NCBI GenBank assembly: GCA_001822095.1
Contig: MHPP01000014.1
Location: 1,662 to 65,661, forward strand
Reading direction: 5' to 3'
Origin: Candidatus Staskawiczbacteria bacterium RIFOXYC1_FULL_38_18
GTDB taxonomy: Bacteria; Patescibacteriota; Minisyncoccia; Minisyncoccales; Staskawiczbacteraceae
Length of the DNA stretch: 64,000 nt
Part shown: positions 14,018 through 59,831 of the stretch, piece by piece
Position numbering within the stretch: the first letter of the stretch is position 1
Layout: each line of letters begins with the position of its first letter
Position numbers and translations under genes: made by a program
Notes under the pieces: model-generated
What the model was told of the DNA's origin: nothing
What the model saw: the letters and a program-made list of their open reading frames with translations, nothing else
Databases searched by the model: none

Positions 14018-14590
14018 ATGATAAGCTTATTTAAGGATATGAAACTTTTTAATGTAATTTTTGCGCTTGTTACTGGCGTATTTGTTGCCTGGCTGGCAAG
14101 TGATTTTGTTAGCGCGAAATACAACGTTTTTTTGTTTATATTTTTTCCGGTTTTTTCCGTGTTTTGTCTTTGGCTGGCTGAAATAGTGGGCAGAAAGATT
14201 TTTATTGTGCGACAAATGGCGCGTTTTGTGCTTGTTGGCGGATTTGCGGATATAATAGACATTAAGGTTTATTTATTATTATTTTGGTTAATCCCTGCGA
14301 GTTTATTAATTAAGTCAATTTCCTTTTTAATTGCTGTGGCAATAAAATATTTTGGAAATAAATATTGGGTGTTTAATAATGATGCGGGGCATAGTATAAA
14401 AGAAATGAGTAAATTTTTGGCTGTTACGGCAATTGGATTAATAATAAACGTGGCGAGTTTTTATTTTATTACGCAAATTAAAACTGGTTTGCCGATGAAA
14501 ATTTGGACAGAGATTTCCATAATAATCGCAGCGCTGGTTGCGTCAGTCTGGAATTTTCTTTGTTATAAATTATTGGTTTTTAAGAAATAA
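14018..14590 (+). CDS. GtrA-family membrane protein (start possibly at internal Met 14216)
   Basis: The C-terminal about 125 aa match the GtrA-like 4-TM pattern (FVLVGGFADIIDIKVYLLL...YWVFNN). A TTTTATTGTGCGACAAATG motif lies directly at the internal ATG. Confidence 0.55.
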   Translation: MISLFKDMKLFNVIFALVTGVFVAWLASDFVSAKYNVFLFIFFPVFSVFCLWLAEIVGRKIFIVRQMARFVLVGGFADIIDIKVYLLLFWLIPASLLIKSISFLIAVAIKYFGNKYWVFNNDAGHSIKEMSKFLAVTAIGLIINVASFYFITQIKTGLPMKIWTEISIIIAALVASVWNFLCYKLLVFKK

Positions 14591-14713
14591 ATTATGGAGC
14601 AGGAGATAAAACAGTGCCAAAATTGCAAGAAAGAGTTCGTCATCGAGCCCGACCGCCCGGAAATAGTTTACTGCGAAGCTGTTACAACGCAGAAGTAGCA
14701 TAAATAGAAACGA

Positions 14714-15025
14714 TTGCGATACTATTATTCCAAAAAAAATTGGAATGACACTAAGAAAATGGAGGACAAAGATTTAATAAAAATTTTAAAAGCTGTGGCA
14801 AATGAAAATCGTTTTATAATTTTAAAATGTTTGTGTAAAAGCAAAGAGTTATCGGTGGGGGATTTAGCCGAGATGACCAAATCGCCGTTTAGAAGCGTTT
14901 CGAGCGATATATCTGTTTTGAGAAAGGCTAATTTAGTCCAAACCAGAAATCACTGCTCTAATCGTCTTTATTCAATTAATAACTCAAGTTTCCTAAAAGG
15001 GTTATTCCAATATTTTCTGGAATAG
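14714..15025 (+). CDS. ArsR/SmtB-family HTH regulator (start probably Met at 14759)
   Basis: The winged HTH signature NRFIILKCL...LSVGDLAEMTKSPFRSVSSDISVLRKANLV is present. Confidence 0.6.
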   Translation: MRYYYSKKNWNDTKKMEDKDLIKILKAVANENRFIILKCLCKSKELSVGDLAEMTKSPFRSVSSDISVLRKANLVQTRNHCSNRLYSINNSSFLKGLFQYFLE

Positions 15026-15083
15026 CAGATAGAAAATGACAATGTAATAAAATAATAGGTGATAATAAAAAATAAAAATAATT

Positions 15084-16178
15084 ATGGCGGTTTTATATAG
15101 AAAATATCGGCCACAGAGTTTTGCGGAAGTTATAGGGCAGGAGCACGTGGCCCAAACCTTGACTAATTCAATAACGGGGAAAAATATTTCTCACGCCTAT
15201 TTGTTTTGCGGACCAAGGGGAAGTGGCAAAACAACAATTGCCAGATTGTTTGCTAAGGCAATAAATTGCGAAAAACCGGATGGAGCCGAGCCTTGCAACA
15301 AGTGTTCTTCGTGCATGGAAATTATGCAGGGACGAAGTATGGATTTGATAGAAATTGACGCGGCTTCCCACACCGGCGTGGACGACGTGAGGCAATTAAT
15401 CGAAGGAATAAAATTTGCCCCGGTAAAGTCAAAATATAAAATATTTATTATTGACGAATGTCACCAGCTCTCAAAATCTGCCGCAAACGCTTTACTAAAA
15501 ACCCTGGAAGAGCCCCCCACTCACGCGATATTTTTGCTGGCAACAACCGAGGCCCACAAAATGATTGCAACCATAATTTCAAGATGCCAAAGGTTTGATT
15601 TTAAAAAACTTCAAATATCTGAAATTATAAAAAAACTGGAATTTATTGCAAAAAAAGAAAACGTAAAATTTGATGATTCGGCATTGTCTTTAATAGCCCT
15701 AAACGCGAGAGGCTCCTTTCGCGATGCCGAATCCTTGATGGACCAGTGCATAAATTTTTCTGGAAGCGGAGCAACCGTTAAAACGGATGACATAAAGGAG
15801 CTTTTGGGAATTGTTGAAGTGGGCCAGATTTCAAAATTTGTTGATTTGCTTATTTCAAAATACGCCAAAAACTCTATTTTATTTTTAAACGAAATGGCAG
15901 AGGGTGGCGTTGATTTGCCTGAATTTGCCAAAACACTGGTTTTTTATTTGCGAGAGTGCCTGCTTTTGAAAATAAACCCCGAATTTTTGAATGCGAAAGG
16001 ATCCGGCTTGTCGGGCGAAGAAATAGAGAAAATAAAATCTCAAACCGCAGGCCTTACTGACAAACAAATTCAAAATATGCTGGAATTATTTATTGACGCG
16101 GAAAACAAAATGAAATACTCGTCCATAATCCAACTTCCCCTTGAATTGGCGGTTATAGATGCTACAAATGCCGAATAA
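15084..16178 (+). CDS. dnaX: DNA polymerase III subunit gamma/tau
   Basis: Walker A (GPRGSGKTT), a Zn module (CNKCSSC) and the clamp-loader SRC motif (SRCQ) are present. Confidence 0.85.
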   Translation: MAVLYRKYRPQSFAEVIGQEHVAQTLTNSITGKNISHAYLFCGPRGSGKTTIARLFAKAINCEKPDGAEPCNKCSSCMEIMQGRSMDLIEIDAASHTGVDDVRQLIEGIKFAPVKSKYKIFIIDECHQLSKSAANALLKTLEEPPTHAIFLLATTEAHKMIATIISRCQRFDFKKLQISEIIKKLEFIAKKENVKFDDSALSLIALNARGSFRDAESLMDQCINFSGSGATVKTDDIKELLGIVEVGQISKFVDLLISKYAKNSILFLNEMAEGGVDLPEFAKTLVFYLRECLLLKINPEFLNAKGSGLSGEEIEKIKSQTAGLTDKQIQNMLELFIDAENKMKYSSIIQLPLELAVIDATNAE

Positions 16179-27608: not shown

Positions 27609-29615
27609 ATGAAGAAAAATTTAAAAAGAATTTTAATAAAATTTTTCGCATTTGTTGCGATTATGAGTTTTGCTTGTAATCCAGTTTTGATCTTAGCTAA
27701 AACCGCCAGCGTCGCCTCGGAATTTGCGCCAAACGCGGGCTGGCTTCCTGTTGCCGGGGACTGGGATGGAGACGGCACAGCAACAATTGGGCTCTATAAC
27801 CTAAAAACTTCTATTTTCTACTTGAGGAATTCCAACACAACAGGCGTTGCCGATATCACTTTTGGATATGGCGCGCCAAACGCGGGCTGGCTTCCTGTTG
27901 CCGGGGACTGGGACAAAAACAAAACAGCCTCCATCGGTCTGTATAACCCGTTAACATCGGTATTCACGCTGAGAAATTCAAATACAACGGGTATTGCCGA
28001 TATCACTTTTGGATATGGCGCGCCGAACGCGGGCTGGCTTCCTGTTGCAGGGGACTGGGATGGAGACGGCACAGCAACAATTGCTTTATATGATTCGCTT
28101 TCATCAACTTTTTATTTAAGAAATTCAAACACTTCAGGATATGCGGACGCGACGTTTAGTTACGGTGTTGAGGACGCGGGCTGGCTTCCTGTTGCCGGGG
28201 ACTGGGATGGAGACGGCACAGCAACAATTGGGCTCTATGATTCCACTGCGTCGATATTTATGCTAAAAAACCAAAATACTTCGGGCGTTGCCGATATCAC
28301 TTTTGGATATGGCGCGCCGAACGCGGGCTGGCTTCCTGTTGCCGGGGACTGGGATGGAGACGGCACAGCAACAATTGGGCTCTATGACCCAAAAACTTCT
28401 ATTTTCTACTTGAGGAATTCCAACACAACAGGCGTTGCCGATATCACTTTTGGATATGGCGCGCCGTTTGAACCATTAATACCGGGCAACTTAATTCTCA
28501 ATCCCTCAATGGAAAGCGGTTCTTCTGCGCCAGATAATTGGCATGGCGAATTTTGGGGCTCAAACAATGTTATTTTTTCCTATCCAACAACTGGTCACAC
28601 GGGTAACGGCTCCAGTATAGCAACTCCGTCCTATACAGACGGTGACGCGAAATGGCGTTTTGACGACGTTAAGGTTGTCCCCTCACAACAGTATGTTTTT
28701 TCCGATTTTTACAAATCAACCATTAAAACAACTGTGACATTAAGATTTACCCTAAATGACGGGACGTTCCTTTATGCTGATATGGGATATCCCGAACCTT
28801 CTACTGATTGGAGCCAATTTTCGGGCTCGTTTGTAGCTCCACTAAATGCAGTTTCGGTTACGGTTTTTCATTTAATAAATTCCGCCGGTTATTTATCTGT
28901 TGATGACTTCTTTCTGGCTGGAGCTTCTCCTGGTACCGCTTTTCCGCAAGGAATGATATCAATAAATTTTGACGACGCATGGACAAGCGCATATCAAAAC
29001 GCGTTTCCGGTTCTTGATGTTTTTGGAATAAAGGCAACGGAATATGCTATATCGGGCGCGATTGGCGACACAGCAAATGGCTATATGACACAGGGTCAAT
29101 TATTGGACCTGCAGAATCGTGGACACGAAATTGAAGCGCATTCAAAAACCCATCTCGACCTAACAACCTTAACGCAGGCCCAGATGACCGATGAAATTTT
29201 GGGATCAAAACAGGCGCTGGAAGCGATGGGTTTTAAAACAATCACTTCTTTTGATTATCCTTATGGCGCCTATAATTCAGCAGTAACACAAACTGTTAAA
29301 AATGCCGGTTATCTCGGCGCCAGAACAGCCGACAATTATGAGCAGGATATAGGCGACAATTATGCTAGCCAAGACCCGTATTTGTTAAAAACCCAGGTTG
29401 TGGTTTCAACCACCCCAATAAGCATAATTCAGCAATGGATTAACAATGCAATTGTAAGCAAAACATGGCTGATACTTGTTTTTCATAAAGTTGACAACAG
29501 CGGAGAACAATATAGTTACACCCCGATGCAATTTTCGCAGGTGGTTGATTATATAAACCAGACGAAAATAAAATTCATCACAATGACTGAGGGATTGGGC
29601 TTGCTTGCGAACTAA
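27609..29615 (+). CDS. Secreted protein with six FG-GAP/VCBS-like repeats and C-terminal polysaccharide deacetylase (NodB/CE4) domain
   Basis: A signal peptide is present. The unit PNAGWLPVAGDWDGDGTATIGLYD is repeated six times. The C-terminal NodB motifs are ISINFDDAW and GHEIEAHSKTH. Confidence 0.65.
   Translation: MKKNLKRILIKFFAFVAIMSFACNPVLILAKTASVASEFAPNAGWLPVAGDWDGDGTATIGLYNLKTSIFYLRNSNTTGVADITFGYGAPNAGWLPVAGDWDKNKTASIGLYNPLTSVFTLRNSNTTGIADITFGYGAPNAGWLPVAGDWDGDGTATIALYDSLSSTFYLRNSNTSGYADATFSYGVEDAGWLPVAGDWDGDGTATIGLYDSTASIFMLKNQNTSGVADITFGYGAPNAGWLPVAGDWDGDGTATIGLYDPKTSIFYLRNSNTTGVADITFGYGAPFEPLIPGNLILNPSMESGSSAPDNWHGEFWGSNNVIFSYPTTGHTGNGSSIATPSYTDGDAKWRFDDVKVVPSQQYVFSDFYKSTIKTTVTLRFTLNDGTFLYADMGYPEPSTDWSQFSGSFVAPLNAVSVTVFHLINSAGYLSVDDFFLAGASPGTAFPQGMISINFDDAWTSAYQNAFPVLDVFGIKATEYAISGAIGDTANGYMTQGQLLDLQNRGHEIEAHSKTHLDLTTLTQAQMTDEILGSKQALEAMGFKTITSFDYPYGAYNSAVTQTVKNAGYLGARTADNYEQDIGDNYASQDPYLLKTQVVVSTTPISIIQQWINNAIVSKTWLILVFHKVDNSGEQYSYTPMQFSQVVDYINQTKIKFITMTEGLGLLAN
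27712..28470 (+). repeat. Six tandem, near-identical ~150-bp intragenic repeats
   Basis: Near-identical nucleotide blocks (gcgccaaacgcgggctggcttcctgttgccggggactgggatggagacggcacagcaacaattgggctctat...) recur at a ~150-bp period. Confidence 0.8.
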
Positions 29616-31337: not shown

Positions 31338-31405
31338 AAGCTACTTTAATTTGAGACTCCCAGTAAATTGCAGAGACGAAAGATACAATTAAAAGTAAAT
31401 CAATT

Positions 31406-31432
31406 AAGCCCGAATAAAATTGGGCTTTTTTG
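31406..31432 (+). terminator. Rho-independent terminator
   Basis: aagcccgaataaaattgggctt is followed by TTTTTT. Confidence 0.7.
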
Positions 31433-31497
31433 TTATTATTGAATTCAAAACCAAAAAGTGCTAATTTTAATAAATAAAATAGGTAATAAATAAAAAT

Positions 31498-31890: not shown

Positions 31891-31897
31891 ATAAAAA

Positions 31898-32470: not shown

Positions 32471-32471
32471 A

Positions 32472-33457: not shown

Positions 33458-33458
33458 T

Positions 33459-41394: not shown

Positions 41395-41437
41395 GTTTTA
41401 GGGGGTCCGCACAAATGATATTAACAAAAATTATTTT

Positions 41438-41692: not shown

Positions 41693-41711
41693 ATAACCTT
41701 GAATCAAAAAT

Positions 41712-42524: not shown

Positions 42525-42531
42525 AAAATTT

Positions 42532-44234: not shown

Positions 44235-44245
44235 GATTTTTAAAA

Positions 44246-44449
44246 ATGAAAAGGAATGAATTAAAAACTAATTATACGTCAAAAAAGGATGAAGGAAGAA
44301 GAAACTTCGCCCTTAATTATATCGCTAACCATATTAAAAAGAATTTACAGAACCTATCTAAATTTAAGTGGGGAGGTGGGGGATTTGCTTGTTTTGTGAA
44401 TTTGGAGCGACCCCACAGCGAACAAGAGGGTCAAGACAAAAGTAAATAA
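44246..44449 (+). CDS. Hypothetical small protein
   Basis: A 67-aa ORF. Confidence 0.3.
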   Translation: MKRNELKTNYTSKKDEGRRNFALNYIANHIKKNLQNLSKFKWGGGGFACFVNLERPHSEQEGQDKSK

Positions 44450-44609
44450 ACTACCCTGGGTAAAATGAGTAGATTTTGAGGGTAATAAGGCAAAACAAAC
44501 AATCAAGTGATTATTCAGTCCTGTCCGTAGAGAGAGGCTTTGACGCAAGGGTTGTCCAGCGTCATCATCACGCCACTGGTAAAGTAAATTAAAAAGCCAG
44601 TGTAAAAAT

Positions 44610-45155
44610 ATGGACAACAAAAAATGTGCTTTGTATCTACGGGTCAGCAAAAGCGACCAGACAACATTGAATCAAGAATTGGAATTGAAAGGTTATTGTC
44701 AGCGGAACGATTGGGATATTTTCAATGTTTACAAAGACGAAGGCGTGTCTGGCTCAAAGACATCAAGACCAGAGTTAGATAAAATGTTAAAAGATGTGCG
44801 GGACAAAAAGTTTGAAGCGGTGATTGTTTGGAAATTTGACCGCTTAGGCAGGTCAACGGCTCATCTTTTACAGGTTTTAGAAGAAATGAAGAATAAAGGA
44901 ATCAGATTGATAGCAACAAGCCAAAGCATAGACACAGACACCGCAATGGGTAAATTCTTTTTTACAATCTTATCTGGGTTTGCTGAAATGGAACGAGGAA
45001 TAATAACAGAAAGAATAAATTTGGGTTTAGCAAGGGTAAAAAAACAAGGGAAAAAGTTGGGTCGCCCATCAGGCTCAAAAGATAAAAGTTATCGTAAAAA
45101 GTCGGGATATTTGCTTCGCTGGCAAAATCAACAAAATCTAAAAGTTTCAATTTAA
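44610..45155 (+). CDS. Small serine recombinase (resolvase/invertase family)
   Basis: The catalytic Ser (ALYLRVSKSDQ) is in a resolvase N-domain, with FDRLGRS and a C-terminal HTH. Confidence 0.8.
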   Translation: MDNKKCALYLRVSKSDQTTLNQELELKGYCQRNDWDIFNVYKDEGVSGSKTSRPELDKMLKDVRDKKFEAVIVWKFDRLGRSTAHLLQVLEEMKNKGIRLIATSQSIDTDTAMGKFFFTILSGFAEMERGIITERINLGLARVKKQGKKLGRPSGSKDKSYRKKSGYLLRWQNQQNLKVSI

Positions 45156-45159
45156 AAAT

Positions 45160-46776
45160 ATGAATCTAAAATCAGCAATCTATGGCAGGGTAAGTCCGAG
45201 TTCTAAAAAATCCATAGAAAACGAGACTATTGAAGACCAAACCGAAAAAAACAAAAAATTCATTATAAGAAATAATGATATTTTGGTTGATATTTATCCA
45301 GACGACCAATATTCTGGTCATTTGGAAAGAAGACCCAGTTTTGATAGATTATTAGAAGATGCAAAATTGGGTCGAATTGAATCTGTTTATATTACAAAAA
45401 TTGATAGACTTGCGAGGGACCCTGGGACGCAGATTTATTGTCTTAAGGAGTTAAAAAAATTAAATCTAAAAGTTTTTCTTGGTGGAGAACTTCTTGATGA
45501 CACACCCGAAGGAAAACTCTTGCTTGGTATACTCGGGCAATTTAGTGAATACGAGGCATCACAAATTGTCATAAGAACCACAAACGGAAGGTGGCGAAAA
45601 GCCAGAGCTGGAAAGATTATCGCCTCCGTTACTCGTTATGGTTTTAAGTTAGAATGGGTTAAAAGGGGAGATGAAAATATTAAAATAGTTTCGATAGATG
45701 AAAATGAATCTAAGGTAGTACTTTATATGTTTGATTTGATATTCAAATGCAGAAGCTGTCATCAGGTAGCTAAAAAATTATTTGAAGAGGGAATTAAAAC
45801 GAGAAATGGAAAAAATTGGGACGCAACCACGGTAAAAGGAGTTTTGACAGATAAAACTTATACAGGAATTTGGCACTACGGCAAAAGATTAGCAGTAGAA
45901 CCAAAGAAAAAGAGAAAGACATATTACAGGTGCCTTAATTCAAGCACAATGGCTAATCCGAACAAGGATGATATCATTTATTACAAAATTCCTGCAATAG
46001 TTAGTAAAGAAAGGTTTGACGCAGTCCAAGAGCTTTTAAAAGAAATTAGTAAAAGAAGAGTTGAAACAAAAAGATTTTATCTTTTAAACGGTATTTTAAG
46101 ATGTGCGAAATGCGGAGCTAAAATGTATGGGAGGAGTTTGTATGATAAAAGATACAATAGATATTATACATATTATTATTGTTCGACCAATTCAAAACCT
46201 TTTCACAAGGCTCCTTGCCCCACGAATCAAGTTAGAAGTAAGGATGTTGAAAAAACGGTTTGGGAGGCGGTGCAAAATATCTTTCATAATCCTGAAAATA
46301 TTTTGTCTTGCAACGAAGCATATTTGAAAGAAAACTATAATCAGGATAAAATAGCGGATGAGAAAAGGTTGCTACTTGCAGAACTAGAAAAAATAAGGCA
46401 AAATAAGATAAAGCAATTAGAGCTTTATGAGATAGACGATGTTATCGATAAGGTCGTTATTAAAGAAAGACTAAATTTTTTATCTGGTAAGGAGCAGTAC
46501 CTAAAAAAGAAATTAGAAGTTATTGATAAATCTGCAACAAGTTCAGAGATGAACAAACATTTAGTTGAGAGCGTAAAGGAATTTGGTAAGCTAATGGAGA
46601 TTGATTTGGAAAAAATGACCGATATTGAGAAAAAAGAATTGCTGATGGGAATGCTGGTATATGTGGAGTTTGACCCAGATAATATGGGCGTTAATGTTGT
46701 TGGAAGTATAGAAGGAATAGACACCGCAAATAAACTTGGGAAAAAGCTTGAGGTATTGAAATTATTAAGGACTTAA
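45160..46776 (+). CDS. Large serine recombinase (phage-type integrase)
   Basis: A resolvase N-domain (AIYGRVSPSSKKS, DRLARDP), a recombinase domain, a zinc ribbon (CAKCGAKMYG...C) and a coiled coil make up the 538-aa protein. Confidence 0.8.
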   Translation: MNLKSAIYGRVSPSSKKSIENETIEDQTEKNKKFIIRNNDILVDIYPDDQYSGHLERRPSFDRLLEDAKLGRIESVYITKIDRLARDPGTQIYCLKELKKLNLKVFLGGELLDDTPEGKLLLGILGQFSEYEASQIVIRTTNGRWRKARAGKIIASVTRYGFKLEWVKRGDENIKIVSIDENESKVVLYMFDLIFKCRSCHQVAKKLFEEGIKTRNGKNWDATTVKGVLTDKTYTGIWHYGKRLAVEPKKKRKTYYRCLNSSTMANPNKDDIIYYKIPAIVSKERFDAVQELLKEISKRRVETKRFYLLNGILRCAKCGAKMYGRSLYDKRYNRYYTYYYCSTNSKPFHKAPCPTNQVRSKDVEKTVWEAVQNIFHNPENILSCNEAYLKENYNQDKIADEKRLLLAELEKIRQNKIKQLELYEIDDVIDKVVIKERLNFLSGKEQYLKKKLEVIDKSATSSEMNKHLVESVKEFGKLMEIDLEKMTDIEKKELLMGMLVYVEFDPDNMGVNVVGSIEGIDTANKLGKKLEVLKLLRT

Positions 46777-46787
46777 AGTAGAATACA

Positions 46788-46821
46788 CGATATAATTAAA
46801 AATTTAAAATTTTAAATTCAA
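46788..46821. repeat. 34-bp AT-rich palindromic sequence; copy 2, 12 nt after the integrase stop (candidate att-like site)
   Basis: ataattaaaaatttaaaattttaaattcaaaatt is 33/34 identical to 2987-3020. Confidence 0.7.
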
Positions 46822-46829
46822 AATTAGCT

Positions 46830-50658: not shown

Positions 50659-50698
50659 TAATTGTGCGACAAGCAATAGCTGCTGCTATTGTGCGACA
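50659..50698. promoter_or_regulatory. Two adjacent copies of the recurring TTGTGCGACA(A/G) inverted-repeat motif
   Basis: taATTGTGCGACAAgcaatagctgctgctATTGTGCGACAGatt lies in the divergent region between the LAGLIDADG-like gene and the ABC transporter. The other copies are listed in findings. Confidence 0.5.
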
Positions 50699-50746
50699 GA
50701 TTAGATTTGAATAAAATTAAAAACTTGCGGCAGGGCCAGTTTTTGT

Positions 50747-50774
50747 TATCCTTGACATATTTTAATTGTATGAT
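50747..50774 (+). promoter_or_regulatory. sigma70 promoter TTGACA-16-TAGAAT for the ABC exporter
   Basis: ccTTGACAtattttaattgtatgaTAGAATtt. Confidence 0.55.
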
Positions 50775-50854
50775 AGAATTTAGTTAGTCCTGACGGTGAT
50801 AATGTGTCATCGTCCTGAACCAAAACAGAATAACGAGAGAAGGGAAGCTAGCAA

Positions 50855-52597
50855 ATGAAAACGATCTTCAAAGCCTACTGGCCGACTGCAAAAAAGTATG
50901 GCTGGCTAATGCTGGTCATGCTGTTTTGCATGGTGATGAGCGTGTTGGCGAATGCCGCGTACCCATTTCTTCTGCGGCAGTTCCTAGACGGATTTACCTG
51001 CGATTCTGGCGATGATATCATCATGCAGACGCTGTGGCGCGTTTTCTGGCTGATTGTTGCGGCTAACGCGGCGTGGCTTGGCCTTGATTTGGCGACTGCT
51101 TACTTTGAACCTAGCAGTATGCGGGACCTTGACCAGCGCAGTTTTCGTGCCCTTCAGGCGCAATCCATGAGATTTTTTGAAGACTCATTGGCAGGAGCGC
51201 TTGCTAAGGTCGCCGGAAAATTCTGCAACTCTTTTGAGGGGATTATTGACCAAATCATTTACAGCCTCGGCCGTAGTCTAACCATGATTTTGCTGACATT
51301 TGCGGTGTTCATCTATGAGAGTCCGATGTTGGCCTTGGCCTTTGGCGTTTGGATCGCCATTTACCTTGCCATCAGCATCTACTTTGCTGTTTTGAGAATG
51401 AGGTGGGGCCAGGTAGTCTCCGAAAAAGACTCTGCCGTAGGTGGGGCTTTTACAGACGCATGTATCAACCAGCCAGCCATCAAGGCATTTGGAATGGAGC
51501 GCGAGGAACAGCAACGGTTTGACAGCACCACAGAAGATTGTTATGTGCACAGGAAAAGCACATATCTGCGAGGCATGATGCTTCTGCGCGTGCAAGGAAT
51601 TGCGGCTGGCGCTTTCGAGTTCATTGTTCTCTGTATGCTTGTGCGAGGTTGGTATAACAAAACCGTAACCGTGGGAGATTTCGTATTTTTCCAAAGTTAC
51701 GTGATAATTCTGATGTCTCAGATATGGAACATTGGGATTTCAACCAACCGCATCTTTCGCTATTTGGCGGATGCGAAGCAGATGGCAGAGATTTTTGCAA
51801 GGGAGTCTGAGGTGCAGGATGCTCCCGGCGCGCGGCCACTGATTGTTGAAGATGGAAAAATTGAGTTTCACTCAGTCAGCTTCAACTACGGCAATCAGAG
51901 TGCGCATCACGACAGCACCATCGAGGATTTCACGTTGCTGGTCCAGCCAGGCCAGACACTAGCCTTTGTGGGCCATAGCGGCGCAGGAAAAAGCACTCTG
52001 GCAAAACTTATTCTCCGCCTCTATGACATCCACTCCGGCTACATCCGCATTGATAATCAGGACATTGCAAACGTGACGCAATTGTCTCTGCGCCGGCAGA
52101 TCGCAGTCGTGCCGCAAGATCCTGATCTTTTTCACAGAAGCCTCCGGGAAAATATTGCCTTTGCAAATCCCGAAGCATCTGAGGAGGAGATTATTGCGGC
52201 CACCAAACGCGCGCATGCATGGGAATTCATCCAGCGCCTTCCCAAAGGCCTGGATACTATTGTCGGCGAACGCGGCACGAAACTTTCTGGCGGCCAACGG
52301 CAACGGATTGCTCTGGCCCGGGCATTTCTTGCAGATGCTCCCATTCTTATTTTGGACGAGGCGACAAGCGCGCTTGACAGCAAAACGGAACACAAGATTC
52401 AGTCTGCGATTGCAGACCTGCTTGTGGGCCGGACCTGCATTGTCATCGCACATCGTTTTTCCACAATCAAGAACGCGAGCCGGATTATAGTCATGGAAGA
52501 TGGGGCCATCAAGGAAGACGGCACGCACAAAGAGCTACTCTCTCAAGATGGCGTATACGCCAGCCTCTGGAAACACCAGAGCGGCTACATCAAGTAG
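50855..52597 (+). CDS. ABC transporter, fused permease/ATP-binding exporter (MsbA/half-transporter type), GC-rich gene
   Basis: Six N-terminal TM helices are present. Walker A (GHSGAGKST), the ABC signature LSGGQRQRIALARA, Walker B ILILDEATSALD and an H-loop are present. Its GC content is visibly higher than that of its neighbours. Confidence 0.8.
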   Translation: MKTIFKAYWPTAKKYGWLMLVMLFCMVMSVLANAAYPFLLRQFLDGFTCDSGDDIIMQTLWRVFWLIVAANAAWLGLDLATAYFEPSSMRDLDQRSFRALQAQSMRFFEDSLAGALAKVAGKFCNSFEGIIDQIIYSLGRSLTMILLTFAVFIYESPMLALAFGVWIAIYLAISIYFAVLRMRWGQVVSEKDSAVGGAFTDACINQPAIKAFGMEREEQQRFDSTTEDCYVHRKSTYLRGMMLLRVQGIAAGAFEFIVLCMLVRGWYNKTVTVGDFVFFQSYVIILMSQIWNIGISTNRIFRYLADAKQMAEIFARESEVQDAPGARPLIVEDGKIEFHSVSFNYGNQSAHHDSTIEDFTLLVQPGQTLAFVGHSGAGKSTLAKLILRLYDIHSGYIRIDNQDIANVTQLSLRRQIAVVPQDPDLFHRSLRENIAFANPEASEEEIIAATKRAHAWEFIQRLPKGLDTIVGERGTKLSGGQRQRIALARAFLADAPILILDEATSALDSKTEHKIQSAIADLLVGRTCIVIAHRFSTIKNASRIIVMEDGAIKEDGTHKELLSQDGVYASLWKHQSGYIK

Positions 52598-52607
52598 TAA
52601 TCGCCAT

Positions 52608-52641
52608 GTCCCGGCACAGCAATGTGTCCGGGACTTTTTTA
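52608..52641 (+). terminator. Rho-independent terminator
   Basis: gtcccggcacagcaatgtgtccgggac is followed by TTTTTT. Confidence 0.75.
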
Positions 52642-52778
52642 TTGCCTTGCCTCGCCGGAGCTTTTAGCGAAGGCGGGTGCGACAAGTGATTAAATAATAT
52701 ATTTTGCAGAACATATATTTCGCGACATTTGTTTGACTTTTATAAAAAATAGAGCCAAGCTTAAATAATTGAAAAGTT

Positions 52779-54713
52779 ATGAAAGAGCAAATAATACAAA
52801 AAGGAGATATTTTTGGAGAGGAATTAAAGCACCATATACTCCGCCGCCTCTCTGAAATAATAGTTGGAAAGGAGACAAATATTACCTCATCTATTTTAGA
52901 ATTTTTAATCGAGCAAACTCTCTTGGAGAAAAGCGAGAAGGTAATGATATCTCGAGAAAAAATCGCCCTGGGAATCAAAGAAATTTTTTTACTTAAATTT
53001 TCGATAGAAGAGCTGGAAGAGCCACTACAAAACCTAATAACAGCTGGTAGGGTTAAGGCATCGAATAAAATTTTTTGTTTAGTAATAGACAGATTCGGAG
53101 AATTAAAGAAGAGGAACGCGGAGACAAAAAGGTTTGAAAAACAAATTCTGAATGAGTGGTGGGATAAAATATCTATTCAGTACCCCGAAATCGGTTCAAA
53201 ATTTAAGGAGGATTTAACGGGGGATCTTCAGTTATATTTGAATAAAATATTTCTGAAACATGGGGCAGAATGCGCCGGTCTTATTTACCCTAAGGACTCT
53301 AAATTAGACGAATATATTAGACTATTATTGACAGAAGAAGAGTTTGAAAAATGTTTACCCAAAAGATCTGCGGAGATAGAGAGAGTTCGTAAAATCGAAT
53401 TCCCACTTTTCCTTAGAAATATTGATAGTAAGAAAAAAAAATATCTATCTCAACTCCTCGACGGTACATTTATTTACCGCATTGTTCAAGCCGATCCGCA
53501 AACTAAAAAATATATTGCTACTAGCTTCAAGAGCTATTCTCTGTACCTAGATACTAATGTTCTCTATTCATTGTTTGATTTAAGCGTTAGAAATAAAACA
53601 ACTGTCGAGAGAACGATTGATTTAGCCCGAGAGTTTGGAATGAAAATATTAGTCTCTAAAAGAACGGTGGAAGAAATGAAAAAGTCGGTAGAGAGCAACG
53701 GGGCCTCTTTATTGAAAAGTCCGGATATCAGGCGTGATCTAGCGGAAATTGCTGCAGATATTTCCGAAGAAGAAAATTTTATTACCGCTTATAGGCGTGA
53801 ATATTATAGAACAGGAATAAACAAGACTGATTTTATAAACAAATTTACTCATGTTTCAGAACTTCTTAAAAATAAAGGCATAGAAATAGATACAAGAATA
53901 ATCAATTTTTCAAAGGAAACTATAGAAAAAGAGACCCGGATACTTAACGATAATATACGCATTAAGAAAGACCTAGACGTTGCACAACACGATGCTTATA
54001 GTTGTTTATTAATAAGAAGGCTTCGTAAAGAAACAGAGGCTAATCAATCTGAAGGAAGGTACTGGTTTCTGACATTGGATTATCAACTACTGATTTATGG
54101 AGCAAAAACCAAAGATGCAGGAGAGCCTTCTTTCTCGTTATTACCACATCAATTATTACAGTTATTGCGTCCTTTTACCCAAAGAACTGAAGAATACGAC
54201 TCTGATTTTATTGAGCTGTTCTCTCGCCCCCAGATAAAATCTGCACAAGGGATTCTACCCAATAATTTGGCAGAGAAAATAATGGCTAAAATTTCATCTT
54301 TTAAGGAAGTTAGGCCAGACATTGCTTTAAGCATTATCCTGAATGCAGAGTTTATTAAGGCTGTTTCTACCGAGAAAGACCCCGTTAAGATAGAAGAGGA
54401 AACAGCCAAGCAGATTGGGGATCGTCTCGCTATACGACTATCACAAGTGGAGGACAGGTTGAGACATATGGAGTTACAAAAAACACCTGCGCCGCAAACG
54501 GTTCGCTCTCTTAGCACAAGTAATTATTGGAACCTTGTTAATCCTCTCTGGCTTGTATGGCAATTACTAAAGTGGTTTTATAACTTAATTAAGAAGCATA
54601 AACTAATATCCGGTTTGATAGTTTTTATGGGTTTAATAGCAACGGATTACTCAATGGCCTGGCAAAACTTAAAAACGATCTGGAGGTTTATCAAAAACGC
54701 AATTGGGTTGTGA
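52779..54713 (+). CDS. Large hypothetical protein with central PIN-like nuclease domain and C-terminal hydrophobic helix
   Basis: YSLYLDTNVLYSLFDL is a PIN domain strand-1 motif with Asp. Downstream acidic residues are present (EEMKKS, QHDAYSCLLI, FLTLDYQL). About 240 aa of unknown N-terminal region precede it and a C-terminal LISGLIVFMGLIA helix follows. Confidence 0.4.
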   Translation: MKEQIIQKGDIFGEELKHHILRRLSEIIVGKETNITSSILEFLIEQTLLEKSEKVMISREKIALGIKEIFLLKFSIEELEEPLQNLITAGRVKASNKIFCLVIDRFGELKKRNAETKRFEKQILNEWWDKISIQYPEIGSKFKEDLTGDLQLYLNKIFLKHGAECAGLIYPKDSKLDEYIRLLLTEEEFEKCLPKRSAEIERVRKIEFPLFLRNIDSKKKKYLSQLLDGTFIYRIVQADPQTKKYIATSFKSYSLYLDTNVLYSLFDLSVRNKTTVERTIDLAREFGMKILVSKRTVEEMKKSVESNGASLLKSPDIRRDLAEIAADISEEENFITAYRREYYRTGINKTDFINKFTHVSELLKNKGIEIDTRIINFSKETIEKETRILNDNIRIKKDLDVAQHDAYSCLLIRRLRKETEANQSEGRYWFLTLDYQLLIYGAKTKDAGEPSFSLLPHQLLQLLRPFTQRTEEYDSDFIELFSRPQIKSAQGILPNNLAEKIMAKISSFKEVRPDIALSIILNAEFIKAVSTEKDPVKIEEETAKQIGDRLAIRLSQVEDRLRHMELQKTPAPQTVRSLSTSNYWNLVNPLWLVWQLLKWFYNLIKKHKLISGLIVFMGLIATDYSMAWQNLKTIWRFIKNAIGL

Positions 54714-54765
54714 ACTATCTCGTCGGTAAGAATGATTTTATTGTGCGACAAATTGGATAAAACAA

Positions 54766-54792
54766 AAAACTGGCCGAGGGGTCAGTTTTATC
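54766..54792. terminator. Bidirectional terminator between convergent genes
   Basis: aaaaaactggccgaggggtcagtttta: a hairpin with an A-tract and a T-tract. It is preceded by a TTTTATTGTGCGACAAAT motif copy at 54737-54754. Confidence 0.6.
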
Positions 54793-54893
54793 ATTGTTAT
54801 TTTTTGTCTGAAAATATTTTTTAATAAAAAAGGCGCCGATCGTTGAACGACAAGCGCCAGTGCGTGAAACAGCTTAGTCGTTGGCGTTAGCCA

Positions 54894-56084
54894 TCAACAA
54901 GCTTTAATCTTTAACCGCATTCCTCGGGGAAGGGAGCGATGGATTGTTTCCCGAAGAGTAGATACGGTATTGAAAAGTCTCTCAAGAGAGGTGTCCAGAC
55001 TTTGGATATGACTTTCGTCCAACCTGCCTAGCAAGATTTGGATTTCAGAATCCGCCATGTCTGTGTAGGTGCGAAGCTTGTATTCCATGCCTCTGGCTTG
55101 AGATCCCAAGGAGGCGATTTTCTCGCCGGCGTGATGATGACTGTTGCGCTGAATTCCTGAGACGCCTCGCAAAGCCGATGCAATATAGTGCTGAGCCTGA
55201 GCCAAAGACATCTTCTGTCCAATGATTTCCTTGGCAAGAGGAATTTGAGACTCGGCTGGCTTAACCTGCGAAAGTAAAAGTCCCAACTGGAAGCTAAGAG
55301 GAGCCTTAATCCTTCTAGAACCGCTGCTCACAGAACCGGTATCTCCGCCTTCCTTGCCTTTGACAACCGGAATCATCCAGTTTAGTACTGTTGGATGAAG
55401 TTTGCGCAGCATAAATTGCTGGCCAACCCATCCCACAGACTTTCCAAAGATGTCTGCGATATGTTTGTCGGTGCGCCCGTTGTTTTTCATGCGCAAGACT
55501 GCCGCCAGGCGCTCTACCGGATCGTGGTCGTGGCGATTGCAATTTGCTGCAACAGAAGCCTCAAAGAGGGTTTCTATGTCAGCGCCGCCTTCCCAGACGT
55601 AAGCTGAGATGCCCCGTTTAAGAAGCATGCAAGCTTTGAGCCGGCCTTCGCCGTCAACAAGTTGCGCGTCAAAGTCAGGGTTTCCGTCGATTTTCACGAC
55701 AATAACCGGAACAAGCTGTCCAACAGCATCTATACTGTTAGCTAGCGAATCAATACCAAAAAATCGTTGCCGGATTTGGTTTTTCATCGGACGGATTTTG
55801 AATGGATTAAAAGCCTCAACTCGCGGCAGTACGACTTTGCTCATGTCAACTTCCGGAGTTGCATTTTGGGCGGGCTCGTTTTTGTGTTTGCCCTTGCCAG
55901 CTTTTGCAAAAATAGACTTGGCAGATGAAACTGGTTCCTCGCGATTGGCTGGTTTTGCCACGATATTGCCGCTGCGTTGCGCTGGGACGGAATTAAACAT
56001 CCGCAGGCTAGCCTCACTAATGCCGGAATTACCAGCAGAGATTGGCTTTGCCGCTGCAATTGGGGCGCTTTTTGGCTTTTTCAT
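54894..56084 (-). CDS. ParB-like nuclease-domain protein (GC-richer gene)
   Basis: The central ParB-N/Srx block FNPFKIRP...LANSIDAVGQLVPVIVVKIDG...QLVDGEGRLKA is present. The N-terminus is low-complexity and basic. Its own promoter TTGACA-17-TATATT lies at ~56150-56180 (minus strand). Confidence 0.5.
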   Translation of the reverse strand: MKKPKSAPIAAAKPISAGNSGISEASLRMFNSVPAQRSGNIVAKPANREEPVSSAKSIFAKAGKGKHKNEPAQNATPEVDMSKVVLPRVEAFNPFKIRPMKNQIRQRFFGIDSLANSIDAVGQLVPVIVVKIDGNPDFDAQLVDGEGRLKACMLLKRGISAYVWEGGADIETLFEASVAANCNRHDHDPVERLAAVLRMKNNGRTDKHIADIFGKSVGWVGQQFMLRKLHPTVLNWMIPVVKGKEGGDTGSVSSGSRRIKAPLSFQLGLLLSQVKPAESQIPLAKEIIGQKMSLAQAQHYIASALRGVSGIQRNSHHHAGEKIASLGSQARGMEYKLRTYTDMADSEIQILLGRLDESHIQSLDTSLERLFNTVSTLRETIHRSLPRGMRLKIKAC

Positions 56085-56232
56085 AATTGTCCCTCTCGCA
56101 ATAATAGTGACAACGAACTGCTAGATGCAAACTCACTACGGGCAAGTTCGCATAAAAATATTAGTTTAATATATAAAAATAATCTGCCATTGTCAATTTA
56201 AAAAAAGAGATTATATTTTTATTGTGCGACGT

Positions 56233-57204: not shown

Positions 57205-57306
57205 GTCTTTTTTTGAGTTGCCTTATTGCCCTACTCTACAACGTCGGTTTACCTACATTTTGCGACGTAGTATATATCTATAATAACGCTCCCCTAGGGC
57301 GTGTCA

Positions 57307-57376
57307 ACCCCGTTAGAAATAGCCCGCCCATAGGCTCTTCGGGCGCGTTTCGCGCGGGCGAGATTTCTAACGGGGT
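57307..57376. repeat. 70-bp GC-rich nested palindromic element (14-bp perfect outer arms ACCCCGTTAGAAAT / ATTTCTAACGGGGT enclosing GC-rich inner hairpins)
   Basis: accccgttagaaat agcccgcccataggctcttcgggcgcgtttcgcgcgggcgag atttctaacggggt. It lies in an AT-rich intergenic region upstream of the recombinase gene. Confidence 0.7.
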
Positions 57377-57448: not shown

Positions 57449-57748
57449 TTATTTTTGGAGAATATTTTGAAAAATACTATTTTTATTTTGGTTTGTATTT
57501 TGATCTACCGTGGTTTTTACCGGCTCTCCCCCGCCTTTCAGTCCCCCGCTGATTTTAGTATAAACTCCGGAGGCATTTGATACCGCCCAGCCCGATAACT
57601 TGGCCCAATAGATTTCTTTTTGGACTGCTATGCCTAGATATAATTTCTTTCCATATTCCCTTGCATACGGCTGCTGGCTCAAAAAAGTCGCACCAAGAAT
57701 AAAAATTATAATAATTATATAACCTGCGCGGCTAAAATTCTCAAACAT
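57449..57748 (-). CDS. Hypothetical small membrane/secreted protein
   Basis: The ORF starts at the internal Met (MFENFSRAGYIIIIIF...). A TM helix is present. The C-terminus is Gly-rich. Confidence 0.35.
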   Translation of the reverse strand: MFENFSRAGYIIIIIFILGATFLSQQPYAREYGKKLYLGIAVQKEIYWAKLSGWAVSNASGVYTKISGGLKGGGEPVKTTVDQNTNQNKNSIFQNILQK

Positions 57749-57848
57749 TTTTGAAATATAATTTATTAATTTATTAATAATCGTACTATCTGCGCTTACG
57801 CGCCATTTGCACAGACGGGGTTTATTCCCCATCTGTCGCACAATAAAA

Positions 57849-58331
57849 CTACTCTGGCTGAGTTGTATGAGTGATTAAATCCAGGGGATATTTTGTGCCT
57901 GAAAAATAGTCTTTTACCATTTGTTTTATATCTAAATCTCGCAGCACATTTAAATCCATTTTTTCTATTTCTTCTGGTGCAAACCATTTGGTTTCTGATA
58001 TTTCATCCTGTAAAAATTTTCCTTGGTTCTCTGAAATTTTACCGATATAAATAATTTTTATTCCATGATGAAAACTTTCAACATCGTTCTTGTTTTTGAA
58101 TATTGAATATACGCCCAAAATATTTTTTGGATTAAAATCAAATCCAGTTTCTTCTCTTACTTCTTTTCTGACTGCATCAATGGGGCTCTCCCCCACCTCA
58201 ATCCAGCCCGCAGGATGGCTCCATTTTCCTTTTGCCGATGGACTGTTCTCCTTTACCAATAAAATTTTACCATCTCTTTCTATAATAGCTCCCGCCACGC
58301 CGAATGTTTGGGTATATACGCGTTTTGTCAT
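57849..58331 (-). CDS. NUDIX hydrolase
   Basis: The Nudix box GKWSHPAGWIEVGESPIDAVRKEVREETG (GX5EX7REUXEEXGU) is present. Confidence 0.8.
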   Translation of the reverse strand: MTKRVYTQTFGVAGAIIERDGKILLVKENSPSAKGKWSHPAGWIEVGESPIDAVRKEVREETGFDFNPKNILGVYSIFKNKNDVESFHHGIKIIYIGKISENQGKFLQDEISETKWFAPEEIEKMDLNVLRDLDIKQMVKDYFSGTKYPLDLITHTTQPE

Positions 58332-58334
58332 GTT

Positions 58335-59831
58335 TTAAAGTAATTTTATTGCTTGTTCTATGCGTTTTATTGTTTTTTCTTTGCCTAGAATATCTGCTAT
58401 TTCAAACGGACTTGGAGAAAATTTCTTGCCCGACAAAGCCACGCGCAACGGCCACAACAAATATCCTTTATTTTTTTCAGGATATCCTTTCTGTTTATTA
58501 AACTCCCCTGCCCCGGCTGTCAGACCTGCCTCAATATTTTTTATGTCCCATATTTTAATTTCCGACAAAATTTTGTCGCACAATAAAAGAGCCTCCTTAA
58601 TTTCTGTGTCCTGCATTGTTGACCATTTTAATAAATCTTTATCAAGACTTAATTTATCCGCAAAAAAGAAATCCGACAATTCAACAATATCAGAAAGTTT
58701 CTTCATCCTTGTTTTTGAGACTTCAACAATTTTTTCCAGCTGATTTTCGGTTACCTGCCCTGCAACCAGAAGCCCGGCTTCCCGCAAATATGGTTTGCAA
58801 AGTTCTGTTAATTTTTCAATATTTTTCTCTCTGATATAAAAGCCGTTTAGGAAATCCAGGCGGTCAATGTTAAAAACAGCGCCGGCTTTTTGCACTTTTT
58901 CTATTGAAAACTCTTTTACTAATTCAGATAGTGAAAAAATTTCTTTTTCCGTTCCCGGATTCCAGCCAAGCAAAACCATGAAGTTAACAAGAGCTTCGGG
59001 CAGATAACCGCTATTATGATAATCGGCTAATGCAACATCTCCCTGCCTTTTTGAAAGCTTGGATCTATCGGTATTTAGCATTAAAGGCAAATGAGCATAA
59101 ATAGGCTGGTAAAAGCCAAGCGCTTTTTGTATTAAAATTTGCCTTGGCGTGTTTGGCAGGTGTTCTTCACCTCTTATTACGTGACTAATTTCCATTTCAA
59201 AATCATCAACAACAACAGCAAAGTGATATAACGGCGAATCTAAATCTTTTGCAATTACCACGTCGCCCAAAAGCCTGGCATCAAATTCCACGTCGCCACG
59301 TATTAGGTCATTAAATTTTATTTTTTTGTTTTCAATTCTAAATCTTATCACAGAAGATTTTTTTTCGGCTAAATTTTTTTCAACGGTTTCCTTTGATAAG
59401 CGTGCGCACTTTCCGTCGTATTTTGGAGCCACTCCCCTGCTCATTTGATCTTGGCGCTTAGCTTCCAAATCTTCCTCTGTACAAAAACAATAATAAGCCT
59501 TGTTTTCCCCTAAAAGCTTTTCTAAATATTTTTTGTAAATATCTGTGCGCTGGGTTTGCTTGTATGGCCCAAATTTTCCGCCAATATCCGGGCCTTCGTT
59601 CCACTCTATTCCCAGCCACTTCAATTGCTCTATAATTTCTTCTGTCCATTTCTGCAAGGACCTTTCTTTATCAGTGTCCTCGATGCGCAAAACAAACCTG
59701 CCGCCATTTTTTTGGGCAAACAAATAATTAAATAAAGCGGTTCTGGACCCTCCCACATGCAAAGGCCCTGTGGGGCTTGGGGCAAACCTTACTCTCACCT
59801 GCCCCGCCGATTTTTTAGCAATTTTTTTCAT
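58335..59831 (-). CDS. gltX: Glutamyl-tRNA synthetase
   Basis: HIGH-type motif (PSPTGPLHVGGSRTALFNY) and KMSKS-type motif (KLSKR), with GluRS-specific blocks. Confidence 0.9.
   Translation of the reverse strand: MKKIAKKSAGQVRVRFAPSPTGPLHVGGSRTALFNYLFAQKNGGRFVLRIEDTDKERSLQKWTEEIIEQLKWLGIEWNEGPDIGGKFGPYKQTQRTDIYKKYLEKLLGENKAYYCFCTEEDLEAKRQDQMSRGVAPKYDGKCARLSKETVEKNLAEKKSSVIRFRIENKKIKFNDLIRGDVEFDARLLGDVVIAKDLDSPLYHFAVVVDDFEMEISHVIRGEEHLPNTPRQILIQKALGFYQPIYAHLPLMLNTDRSKLSKRQGDVALADYHNSGYLPEALVNFMVLLGWNPGTEKEIFSLSELVKEFSIEKVQKAGAVFNIDRLDFLNGFYIREKNIEKLTELCKPYLREAGLLVAGQVTENQLEKIVEVSKTRMKKLSDIVELSDFFFADKLSLDKDLLKWSTMQDTEIKEALLLCDKILSEIKIWDIKNIEAGLTAGAGEFNKQKGYPEKNKGYLLWPLRVALSGKKFSPSPFEIADILGKEKTIKRIEQAIKLL

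Follow-up and report, generated by a model that had tools for sequence, protein, structure and literature searches.

What is the role of a short, partly symmetrical DNA motif that recurs in and around what appears to be an accessory region of a bacterial chromosome? The question is raised by a stretch of 64,000 nucleotides of Candidatus Staskawiczbacteria bacterium RIFOXYC1_FULL_38_18 (assembly GCA_001822095.1, contig MHPP01000014.1, positions 1,662 to 65,661 of the forward strand; hereafter the window), which belongs to the Candidate Phyla Radiation (CPR). An earlier note on this DNA had described seven copies of a TTGT-N3-ACAA motif and had considered that they might be the operator of a regulator of the region, a binding site for a recombinase or a ParB-like protein, or the core of a small repeat element. 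Based on sequence comparisons, we consider it on balance probable that the copies are solo Xer-binding half-sites, that is, single arms of dif, the chromosomal dimer-resolution site, which form a polar array around dif and mark the replication terminus. The motif most likely marks the terminus rather than regulating an accessory gene cluster, which corrects a tempting misreading, given that it resembles the operator of an 'accessory island' but is not one. Overall, the earlier interpretation is partly supported, in that its recombinase-site option survives while the operator, ParB and mini-element options do not.

When up to one mismatch to the 13-mer TTATTGTGCGACA was allowed, we detected eight sites in the window (Table 1), compared to 0.13 expected, and none of 100 shuffles reached this number, confirming that the motif recurs far beyond chance. 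All seven sites described previously are real and are included in these eight, although their positions had been shifted by 1-3 nt, and an eighth copy at 3540 (TTATCGTGCGACA) had been overlooked; the copy orthologous to the latter, at position 4837 of a related locus (L173; loci of relatives are given by their L numbers), is perfect. The 11-mer TTGTGCGACAA has four exact copies (14205+, 50662+, 54741+ and 58573-), against a chance expectation of 0.04, and with the exception of low-complexity sequence and one tandem array the motif is the most repeated 11-mer in the window. Allowing two mismatches gave ten sites compared to 1.65 expected, and the two additional sites (5217 and 46176) could be chance matches. 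Six of the eight copies fall within 8 kb (50.6-58.6 kb) and two in the other 50 kb, consistent with the clustering that had been pointed out. Several details required revision: the copy at 57834 had been graded as near-perfect but is a perfect 13-mer, and the exact 18-mer TTTTATTGTGCGACAAAT, thought to occur three times, was found twice (14200 and 54736), the third instance, in gltX, having 17 nt in common. The palindrome CGACAAAATTTTGTCG is located within gltX as described, and the copies reported beside the recombinase stop and beside the NUDIX stop, the latter with a hairpin next to it, are placed accordingly (Table 1).

Table 1 Coordinates of motif copies, candidate dif, recombinase gene and neighbouring features in the window
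Feature	Positions	Strand	Remarks
Motif copy, 1 mismatch, TTATCGTGCGACA	3540..3552	+	In FtsQ/POTRA-like ORF (3026-3874, Pfam); ~53.7 kb left of dif
Perfect motif copy	14202..14214	+	Ends 1 nt ahead of ATG 14216 of GtrA-like gene
Free-standing single-domain LAGLIDADG protein, 171 aa	50093-50608	-	Syntenic beside xer in at least 16 GTDB loci
Motif copy TAATTGTGCGACA, tandem pair member 1	50659..50671	+	Reverse complement gives -35-like TTGTCG to divergent LAGLIDADG gene
Motif copy CTATTGTGCGACA, tandem pair member 2	50686..50698	+	27 nt from start to start
GC-richer segment (0.45-0.50), 5.5 kb	50699..56218		ABC transporter, 644-aa ORF without family, 396-aa ORF with sub-threshold ParB domain
Perfect motif copy	54738..54750	+	24 nt past stop of 644-aa ORF, ahead of terminator-like hairpin 54766-54789; within inserted segment
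Innermost left motif copy TTATTGTGCGACG	56219..56231	+	Ends 1 nt short of recombinase stop codon (56233); antisense to both flanking genes
Xer-like tyrosine recombinase gene, 323 aa	56233..57204	-	Pfam Phage_integrase and SAM-like N-terminal domain
Candidate dif ACGTCGCAAAA-TGTAGG-TAAACCGACGT, 28 bp, 11-6-11 imperfect palindrome	57241..57268	-	~36 nt upstream of recombinase start codon
Sigma-70-type promoter TTGACA-16-TATTAT	57280..57307	-	11/12 matches; reads through dif into recombinase gene; kept in relatives
Small conserved ORF, hydrophobic N-terminus	57449..57841	-	Conserved ...FLSQQPYF... and ...EKIKNYF...
Innermost right motif copy, perfect 13-mer	57834..57846	-	Starts 2 nt past NUDIX stop, then 10-bp hairpin (-10.9 kcal/mol, z = -4.0)
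Perfect motif copy in gltX	58574..58586	-	Codons CTT TTA TTG TGC GAC A (LLLCD)

The extent of the motif was evaluated by a repeat search and by alignment of the flanks, which showed no similarity among the window copies past ~18 nt; this makes the motif a short site, as opposed to a repeat element, and neither the core of a small repeat nor a miniature repeat of the repetitive extragenic palindrome (REP), miniature inverted-repeat transposable element (MITE) or BOX-like type fits these copies. The TTGT-N3-ACAA symmetry emphasized in the earlier note is genuine, yet it is only part of an asymmetric site of 16-18 bp. Rfam and tRNA scans of the window returned only a LOOT RNA and tRNA-Gln, neither of them at the motif. 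Two arrangements of the window copies recur elsewhere: the layout of the 50659 copy ahead of the LAGLIDADG gene is found in L138, L171, L172 and L211, and tandem pairs spaced 25-27 nt in L138, L178, L219 and L220. At the 14202 copy, ATG 14216 is likely the true start of the GtrA-like gene, given that the Pfam GtrA domain begins at residue 69 of the long open reading frame (ORF).

To place these copies in a broader context, we scanned one genome per species in GTDB with the 18-mer TTTTATTGTGCGACARAT, which yielded 90 blocks of at most 8 kb each, none from the species of the window. Approximately 40 of these blocks are single matches in unrelated bacteria with one 13-mer copy each, close to the estimated chance level, while about half belong to metagenome-assembled genomes (MAGs) of CPR/Parcubacteria (many Ca. 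Staskawiczbacteria, Parcubacteria and other Patescibacteria), and only there were 2-6 copies of the 13-mer found per 8 kb. The consensus compiled from 106 copies, ttTTATTGTGCGACAaat, has 13 core positions that are 92-100% conserved and no signal past ~18 nt, and because this compilation spans many CPR species the motif is a conserved, clade-wide feature. Conservation in related genomes, a check that had been suggested when the motif was first noticed, thus extends to dozens of Ca. Staskawiczbacteria and related Parcubacteria species that keep the 13-18-mer. Searching the 90 blocks with the window ORFs (tblastn) recovered orthologs of the recombinase in 22 (41-98% identity), of gltX in 18, of the LAGLIDADG gene in 16 and of uppS in 12; by our own tally, ~33 of the ~57 CPR blocks have orthologs of this one 64-kb window, and in relatives the motif concentrates in the syntenic uppS-LAGLIDADG-recombinase-gltX region. 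Long contigs of 267, 594 and 808 kb contain one hit block each, and a 299-kb contig contains three, all on the same strand. Given this regional clustering and the one to three hit blocks per long contig, the motif is not a DNA uptake sequence, a Chi site or a genome-wide word of the type of the FtsK orienting polar sequences (KOPS). For a DNA uptake sequence one would also expect ~1 copy per kb in both orientations, whereas the window has two copies in the 50 kb outside the cluster and a strong polarity. Protein searches with the recombinase matched only metagenome contigs of at most 78 kb, and 80 further loci were taken from metagenomes through a recombinase alignment. A scan of viral contigs with a 15-mer produced single-copy, chance-level matches among the matches listed, and a literature search with the motif sequence returned only unrelated primers.

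The recombinase gene at the centre of this syntenic region encodes a protein whose best PDB match is XerD (1a0p, 2.8e-37) and whose closest solved relatives are XerD and XerA. It scores 223 and 216 bits against the NCBIfam XerD and XerC models, short of their equivalog cut-offs, and we therefore refer to it as Xer-like rather than as an XerC or XerD equivalog. The residues R149, K191, H266, R269, H292 and Y301, which make up the R-K-H-R-H/W-Y catalytic set, are invariant in 19 orthologs, and no other xer gene was seen at the locus. An alignment of 15 loci over the DNA ahead of the recombinase start revealed a sigma-70-type promoter and, after it, a candidate dif, of which 42 distinct versions were available after metagenome loci had been added. 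The two arms are complementary at 7 of 11 positions in the window and at 6-9 of 11 across the 42 versions of relatives; the commonest version is ATGTCGCAAAA-TGTAGG-TAAAGCGACAT, and the site lies 2-244 nt, mostly <100 nt, upstream of the recombinase start.

Two further lines of evidence place this site at the replication terminus. First, the cumulative GC skew of the window reaches its maximum at 56-57 kb, coinciding with the candidate dif and with the point on which gene orientation converges. Second, among 15 related loci with a recombinase at least 51% identical and long flanks on both sides, GC skew is positive to the left and negative to the right of the recombinase in 14; 13 of these 14 additionally show gene orientation converging on it. 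We take the 28-bp site to be dif, situated at the replication terminus, and its arrangement fits a single-recombinase Xer/dif system; we found no published account of dif in CPR bacteria. Two features near the site are recorded here. In L153 and L211, a second, partial dif-like duplication, consisting of a further GTCGCAAAAT arm and an inverted copy of the other arm, is inserted ahead of the xer start, ~60-90 nt downstream of dif, and may be a remnant of Xer-mediated integration. A long inverted repeat at 57309-57376 (CCCCGTTAGAAAT...ATTTCTAACGGGG), which directly precedes the -35 box of the xer promoter, may serve as terminator of the small ORF or as a palindrome to which a protein binds, and a similar one (CCCCGTTAGAAG...CTTCTAACGGGG) occupies the same place in L229.

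Comparison of the motif with this site gave the relation on which our interpretation depends. Across the 42 versions, the promoter-proximal dif arm has the consensus A[TCG][GT]TCGCA[ATC]AA, followed by T, and the reverse complement of the motif is TTGTCGCACAA, also followed by T (T-T-G-T-C-G-C-A-C-A-A, then T-A-A-A-A). The motif agrees with all invariant positions of the arm, and at the variable ones, the outermost position excepted, it shows a variant that is also observed in dif. In the clade whose recombinases are 63-66% identical, the motif is the dif arm, in the form (A)TGTCGCACAAT or TAGTCGCACAAT (L226, L235, L231, L232, L234 and L236). Variants of the two also tend to occur together: when only the A and G forms at the variable position are counted, the solo variant ATTATGCGAC accounts for 21 of 42 copies in species whose dif arm is of the ATAA type compared to 7 of 54 where it is of the AAAA type, and L230 carries a GTACGAC solo copy alongside its own GTACGAC-type dif arm, a pairing also found in L228, where dif was read by eye. 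On a distant 808-kb chromosome with a recombinase of 41% identity, the sole 18-mer match is located 13 nt upstream of the recombinase gene. The option that the motif is a recombinase-binding site, one of several that had been listed, is thus borne out insofar as the motif appears to repeat, as a single arm, the conserved arm of the candidate dif immediately ahead of the Xer-like gene. A separate local repeat with a GTGCGAC core, the 20-mer ATGCGTAGTGCGACGTAAAA, occurs three times in ~2 kb in L227, 7.5-9.6 kb downstream of the xer stop, and is unrelated.

We then examined orientation, with all loci turned as in the window and copy positions taken relative to the ends of the recombinase gene, dif lying just upstream of its start. 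In the GTDB loci, 43 copies on the plus and 5 on the minus strand lie to the left of the recombinase gene, and 25 on the minus and 1 on the plus strand to the right, such that 68 of 74 are placed as a mirror orientation predicts. The metagenome loci gave tallies of 20 plus and 0 minus on the dif side and 27 minus and 2 plus on the other; the two sides together have 47 of 49 copies in mirror orientation, leaving out two matches that are dif itself. In terms of the dif arm, the outer end of every solo copy faces dif. Two copies are nearly universal, one 2-160 nt past the recombinase stop (56219 in the window), which is the most widely conserved position across species, and one 400-900 nt upstream of the recombinase start, just ahead of the small conserved ORF (57834 in the window). 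In ~40 loci, the copy by the recombinase stop is oriented as its side of dif predicts even though both neighbouring genes run antisense to it, so polarity is set by the side of dif and not by transcription.

A convergence of orientation on dif from both sides, together with a density that peaks near dif and with distant copies (3540 and 14202) that keep their replichore orientation, would also be expected of an orienting sequence like KOPS or the SpoIIIE recognition sequences (SRS), read by an FtsK/SpoIIIE translocase that is thereby steered to dif. Known KOPS and SRS are 7-8-nt, purine-rich words that are spread along both replichores. The motif, by contrast, is 13-18 nt long with an internal dyad and is seemingly rare outside the terminus region, as judged from the long contigs with one to three hit blocks, and an FtsK model does not predict that its sequence should be that of a dif arm. 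We therefore regard an orienting sequence of this kind as an unlikely explanation.

The placement of copies relative to genes bears on two other alternatives. Among the 64 intergenic copies for which both neighbours were called, 51 come after a same-strand gene, often 1-7 nt past its stop, 34 have a same-strand gene downstream, and 20 lie between convergent genes; a further 34 copies are in coding sequence, 28 of them in sense orientation. Since terminator hairpins also adjoin many copies, one could propose a gene-end element that acts on RNA or transcription, for example a processing or termination signal past stops. However, the most conserved copy, at the recombinase stop, is antisense to both neighbours, copies occur on either side of terminators and in some cases past the T tract, and the motif itself forms only a weak hairpin (-1.2 kcal/mol). 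The sense bias is moreover expected of a dif-polar DNA motif as well, because genes are co-oriented with replication, and we consider a gene-end role very improbable.

The second alternative is the operator of a dimeric helix-turn-helix (HTH) regulator (ArsR, ParB-like or other) controlling the accessory genes at 50-58.6 kb, as originally envisaged. It would account for the TTGT-N3-ACAA dyad, for the several intergenic copies near promoters or terminators and for the one copy over the -35 box of the LAGLIDADG gene. Yet the motif is shared by many species, including those without the accessory genes; copies are found in coding sequence, past stops, between convergent genes and antisense to both neighbours; orientation tracks the side of dif and not the gene; and the conserved site is asymmetric, spans 16-18 bp and has no fixed position to promoters, with no fixed-distance promoter signal across the 106 copies. 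An operator function therefore seems highly unlikely. The more specific proposal of a binding site for the ParB-like protein is contradicted by the location of its ORF (54894-56084) in a segment that is missing from most motif-carrying relatives, and its match to ParB is below the family cut-off. We also rejected a promoter or transcription-start element, for which the -10-like box upstream of the TAATTG variant had been a lead, as this box belongs to the opposite strand, where it is the TATAAT of the divergent LAGLIDADG gene.

A copy inside a protein-coding gene made it possible to separate selection on DNA from selection on protein. In gltX orthologs, the corresponding protein segment is variable (SLxxSEK and similar), whereas the window and 10 loci instead have LLLCD, encoded by an identical 16-nt sequence, CTTTTATTGTGCGACA, around which the flanking codons vary between loci. 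Several species without a gltX copy carry one just past the gltX stop. The motif therefore overrides a variable segment of the protein, which indicates selection on it at the DNA level.

This evidence also bears on whether the copies could be non-functional scars, that is, degenerate halves of dif that remained near it after mobile elements, of the type of integrative mobile elements exploiting Xer recombination (IMEX) or of dif modules, had repeatedly integrated and excised through Xer. Variable inserts between copies beside the recombinase (5.5 kb long in the window and ~2 kb in both L181 and L140/L133), the higher GC content of the window insert than of its surroundings, and the partial second dif-like duplication of L153 and L211 are all features that scars would leave. 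However, copies are retained at orthologous positions in many species, even in gltX against the preference of the protein, the 13-mer is nearly invariant, exceeding dif in this respect, the mirror polarity is regular, and the inserts are ~1 kb from dif, past the recombinase gene, rather than at dif. We attach only a small probability to this explanation.

Other forms of mobility were rejected separately. An invertible segment, or the terminal inverted repeats of a mobile recombinase cassette, is at odds with the orientation of the recombinase relative to gltX, which is the same in every locus with both genes, and with the synteny of the locus and an identity that tracks that of the neighbouring genes. 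An array of integron-like attC sites does not match either, in that the copies lie on the 3' side of the recombinase gene, measure 13-18 nt and in some cases reside in core genes.

Lastly, polar sites that flip at the terminus are what a Ter-like fork trap with a dedicated terminator protein would exhibit, and the conserved LAGLIDADG protein encoded beside the recombinase is a candidate for that protein. LAGLIDADG proteins recognise long specific sites. The gene is syntenic in at least 16 GTDB loci, and a motif copy overlaps its promoter, with TTGTCG at the -35 position 17 nt from TATAAT, reminiscent of TerB over the tus promoter. On the other hand, in many loci the copy next to the recombinase is present although the available downstream flank (up to 10 kb in L227, L235 and L238) showed no LAGLIDADG gene, and the site is odd-centred and mostly asymmetric, unlike the pseudo-palindromes of homodimeric LAGLIDADG enzymes. 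To our knowledge the motif also has no similarity to the Tus or RTP Ter consensus, and both its identity with the dif arm and its co-variation with dif favour the recombinase as reader. A fork trap of this kind appears improbable to us.

Several observations weigh against the interpretation of the motif as solo dif arms. In the main clade, which includes the window, the solo arm TTGTCGCACAA and the species' own dif arm A[TC]GTCGCAAAA differ at two positions, and the solo arm is more invariant between species than dif itself, so that co-variation with dif is only partial. Across the 106 copies there is no second partial arm as in the XerD-binding sites (XDS) of other bacteria, with no CACAA signal at positions -8 to -4 and only an A/T-rich stretch. 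The copies at 3540 and 14202 are 43-54 kb from dif, and the array therefore extends past the immediate dif region. About two thirds of the copies are intergenic, many of them 1-7 nt past a same-strand stop codon or adjoining terminator hairpins, which would also fit an RNA-level or gene-end role; we read this placement as that of a long site put where its cost is least, with genes running with replication. Family scans of 22 window ORFs identified no smc, scpAB or ftsK among them. The sampling is biased, in that the GTDB loci are 8-kb blocks picked for containing the 18-mer and not complete genomes, and the species are related, such that the counts are of non-independent events. Finally, that the recombinase is the protein reading the motif is a step we infer from the resemblance to dif, and the downstream function, possibly a barrier or unloading site for DNA-translocating machines, is proposed by analogy.

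With these points in mind, we propose the following model for solo dif arms at the terminus. Some ten solo arms surround dif, densest within a few kb, in plus orientation to the left and minus to the right, and because the arms are mirror-oriented their outer ends face dif. A recombinase monomer would bind each solo arm, which would be unable to recombine because the partner arm is missing. The bound proteins would form a polar array that presents one face toward arrivals from either chromosome arm, and such an array would in turn mark the dif region. Most plausibly, the array would be an unloading or stalling site for loop extruders of the structural maintenance of chromosomes (SMC) family, for FtsK or for the replisome, comparable to XerD at the XDS of B. 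subtilis. A bolder extension, which we put forward tentatively and consider doubtful, is that in minimal CPR genomes one Xer recombinase has two jobs, resolving dimers at dif and, bound as monomers to the mirror-symmetric array of solo arms, acting as a directional gate against SMC, FtsK or the replisome that defines the terminus. If true, this two-job recombinase would stand in for the separate systems of model bacteria (Tus/RTP, MatP or XerD-XDS), the boundaries of the zone would be set by the conserved innermost copies on either side of xer and dif, and solo arms could be preferred landing points for the variable inserts beside the recombinase gene.

The locus provides a concrete candidate dif/Xer system and terminus locator for a large uncultured group whose chromosome biology is essentially unknown. 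Solo dif arms at the terminus, so far represented by XerD and the XDS of Firmicutes, are suggested here for a very distant lineage and in a simpler form, with one arm and apparently one recombinase, and with a strict polarity suggestive of a directional mechanism. On the practical side, both the motif and dif could help to orient and check MAG assemblies of the clade, and the predicted binding can be tested in vitro with purified protein and short DNA duplexes.

Among the neighbouring features, the GC-richer segment at 50699-56218 sits between motif copies at a junction where the LAGLIDADG and xer genes of most relatives are direct neighbours. In other species this spot is occupied by inserts that differ from it, 0.3-2 kb long and likewise bounded by motif copies. 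The LAGLIDADG protein, which matches one half of I-OnuI-type monomeric homing endonucleases and retains the acidic residue of its motif (VATIVNSDG), looks vertically inherited rather than mobile; the -35 element of its gene is supplied by the solo arm. The small ORF at 57449-57841 lies between the innermost right copy and the xer promoter and dif in all relatives examined, and it matched no Pfam or NCBIfam family.

Further away, 31338-46829 is a 15.5-kb insertion relative to eight related species, in which the ortholog of ORF 30141-31337 abuts the gene for ribosomal protein L9. Its cargo comprises an N6/N4 DNA methylase (42532-43776), a large serine recombinase at the right end (45160-46776) and the LOOT RNA match (40231-40350); the insertion is probably a prophage or another integrated mobile element. 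An AT-rich repeat of 38 nt that is itself palindromic occurs at 2986-3023 and 46791-46828, with 95% identity between the copies, and directly precedes a gene start in both places (the FtsQ-like ORF and L9), and the 46791 copy also directly follows the stop of the serine recombinase. A tandem array with a period of 147 nt at 27663-28544, recognized from overlapping matches to a 294-nt reference copy that are 147 nt apart and 62-74% identical, is contained in a 668-aa ORF with a polysaccharide deacetylase domain.

Compared with known systems of the terminus, the motif resembles KOPS of E. coli and SRS of B. subtilis in being polar and switching orientation at dif, but it is 13-18 bp rather than 8 bp long, is not G-rich, is apparently confined to the terminus and has a dif-derived sequence. 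With the Ter sites of Tus (E. coli) or RTP (B. subtilis) it shares ~ten polar sites in two opposed groups round the terminus, some of them intragenic, with one site overlapping the promoter of a nearby gene for a DNA-binding protein; unlike Ter, it equals a dif arm, and no tus or rtp homolog was found among the 22 window ORFs scanned. Single-arm motifs for the same recombinase, besides an inverted core, are known from DR1 and DR2 of the Tn4430 TnpI resolution site and from the extra IntI1 sites of attI1. These accessory repeats are located within ~100 bp of the core and control recombination itself, whereas the copies described here are 0.5 to >40 kb away.

The matS sites bound by MatP in enterobacteria are likewise 13-bp dyads restricted to the terminus, with a density that rises toward dif (PMC10945525), but matS is a true palindrome without polarity and MatP is unrelated to recombinases. 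Single-recombinase Xer systems with dif next to xer have been described as XerS/difSL in streptococci, XerH/difH in Helicobacter and XerA/dif in archaea (PMC1914069, PMC3325230, PMC2958812). As in these systems, the locus studied here combines one tyrosine recombinase gene with a linked, imperfectly palindromic dif at the terminus, one arm of which is better conserved. The recombinase is closer to XerD, XerC and XerA than to XerS or XerH, and two features differ from those descriptions, namely a dif located between the xer promoter and the start codon and an array of solo arms around it.

The closest known kind of element is the XDS. In the terminus of B. subtilis, XerD bound to these dif-like sites unloads SMC without requiring XerC (PMC11840125; bioRxiv 10.1101/2021.09.09.459576), and XDS of B. 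subtilis and Staphylococcus aureus at which XerD unloads SMC-ScpAB are credited to Karaboja et al. 2021 in these two sources. An XDS is laid out there as a full XerD arm, a degenerate centre of 5-6 bp and the 5 innermost bp of a second XerD arm (bioRxiv 10.1101/2021.09.09.459576), whereas the sites described here have one arm and an A/T-rich stretch, without a second partial arm. The recombinase here scores below the XerD and XerC cut-offs and is encoded by the only xer gene seen at the locus, the lineage is CPR rather than Firmicutes, and unloading of SMC is proposed by analogy. For the strict mirror polarity and the conserved innermost pair bracketing xer, we found no counterpart in descriptions of XDS. 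What the two have in common is a set of extra chromosomal sites that carry a recombinase-binding arm of dif, occur several times per terminus region, and presumably do not recombine and are read by an Xer recombinase.

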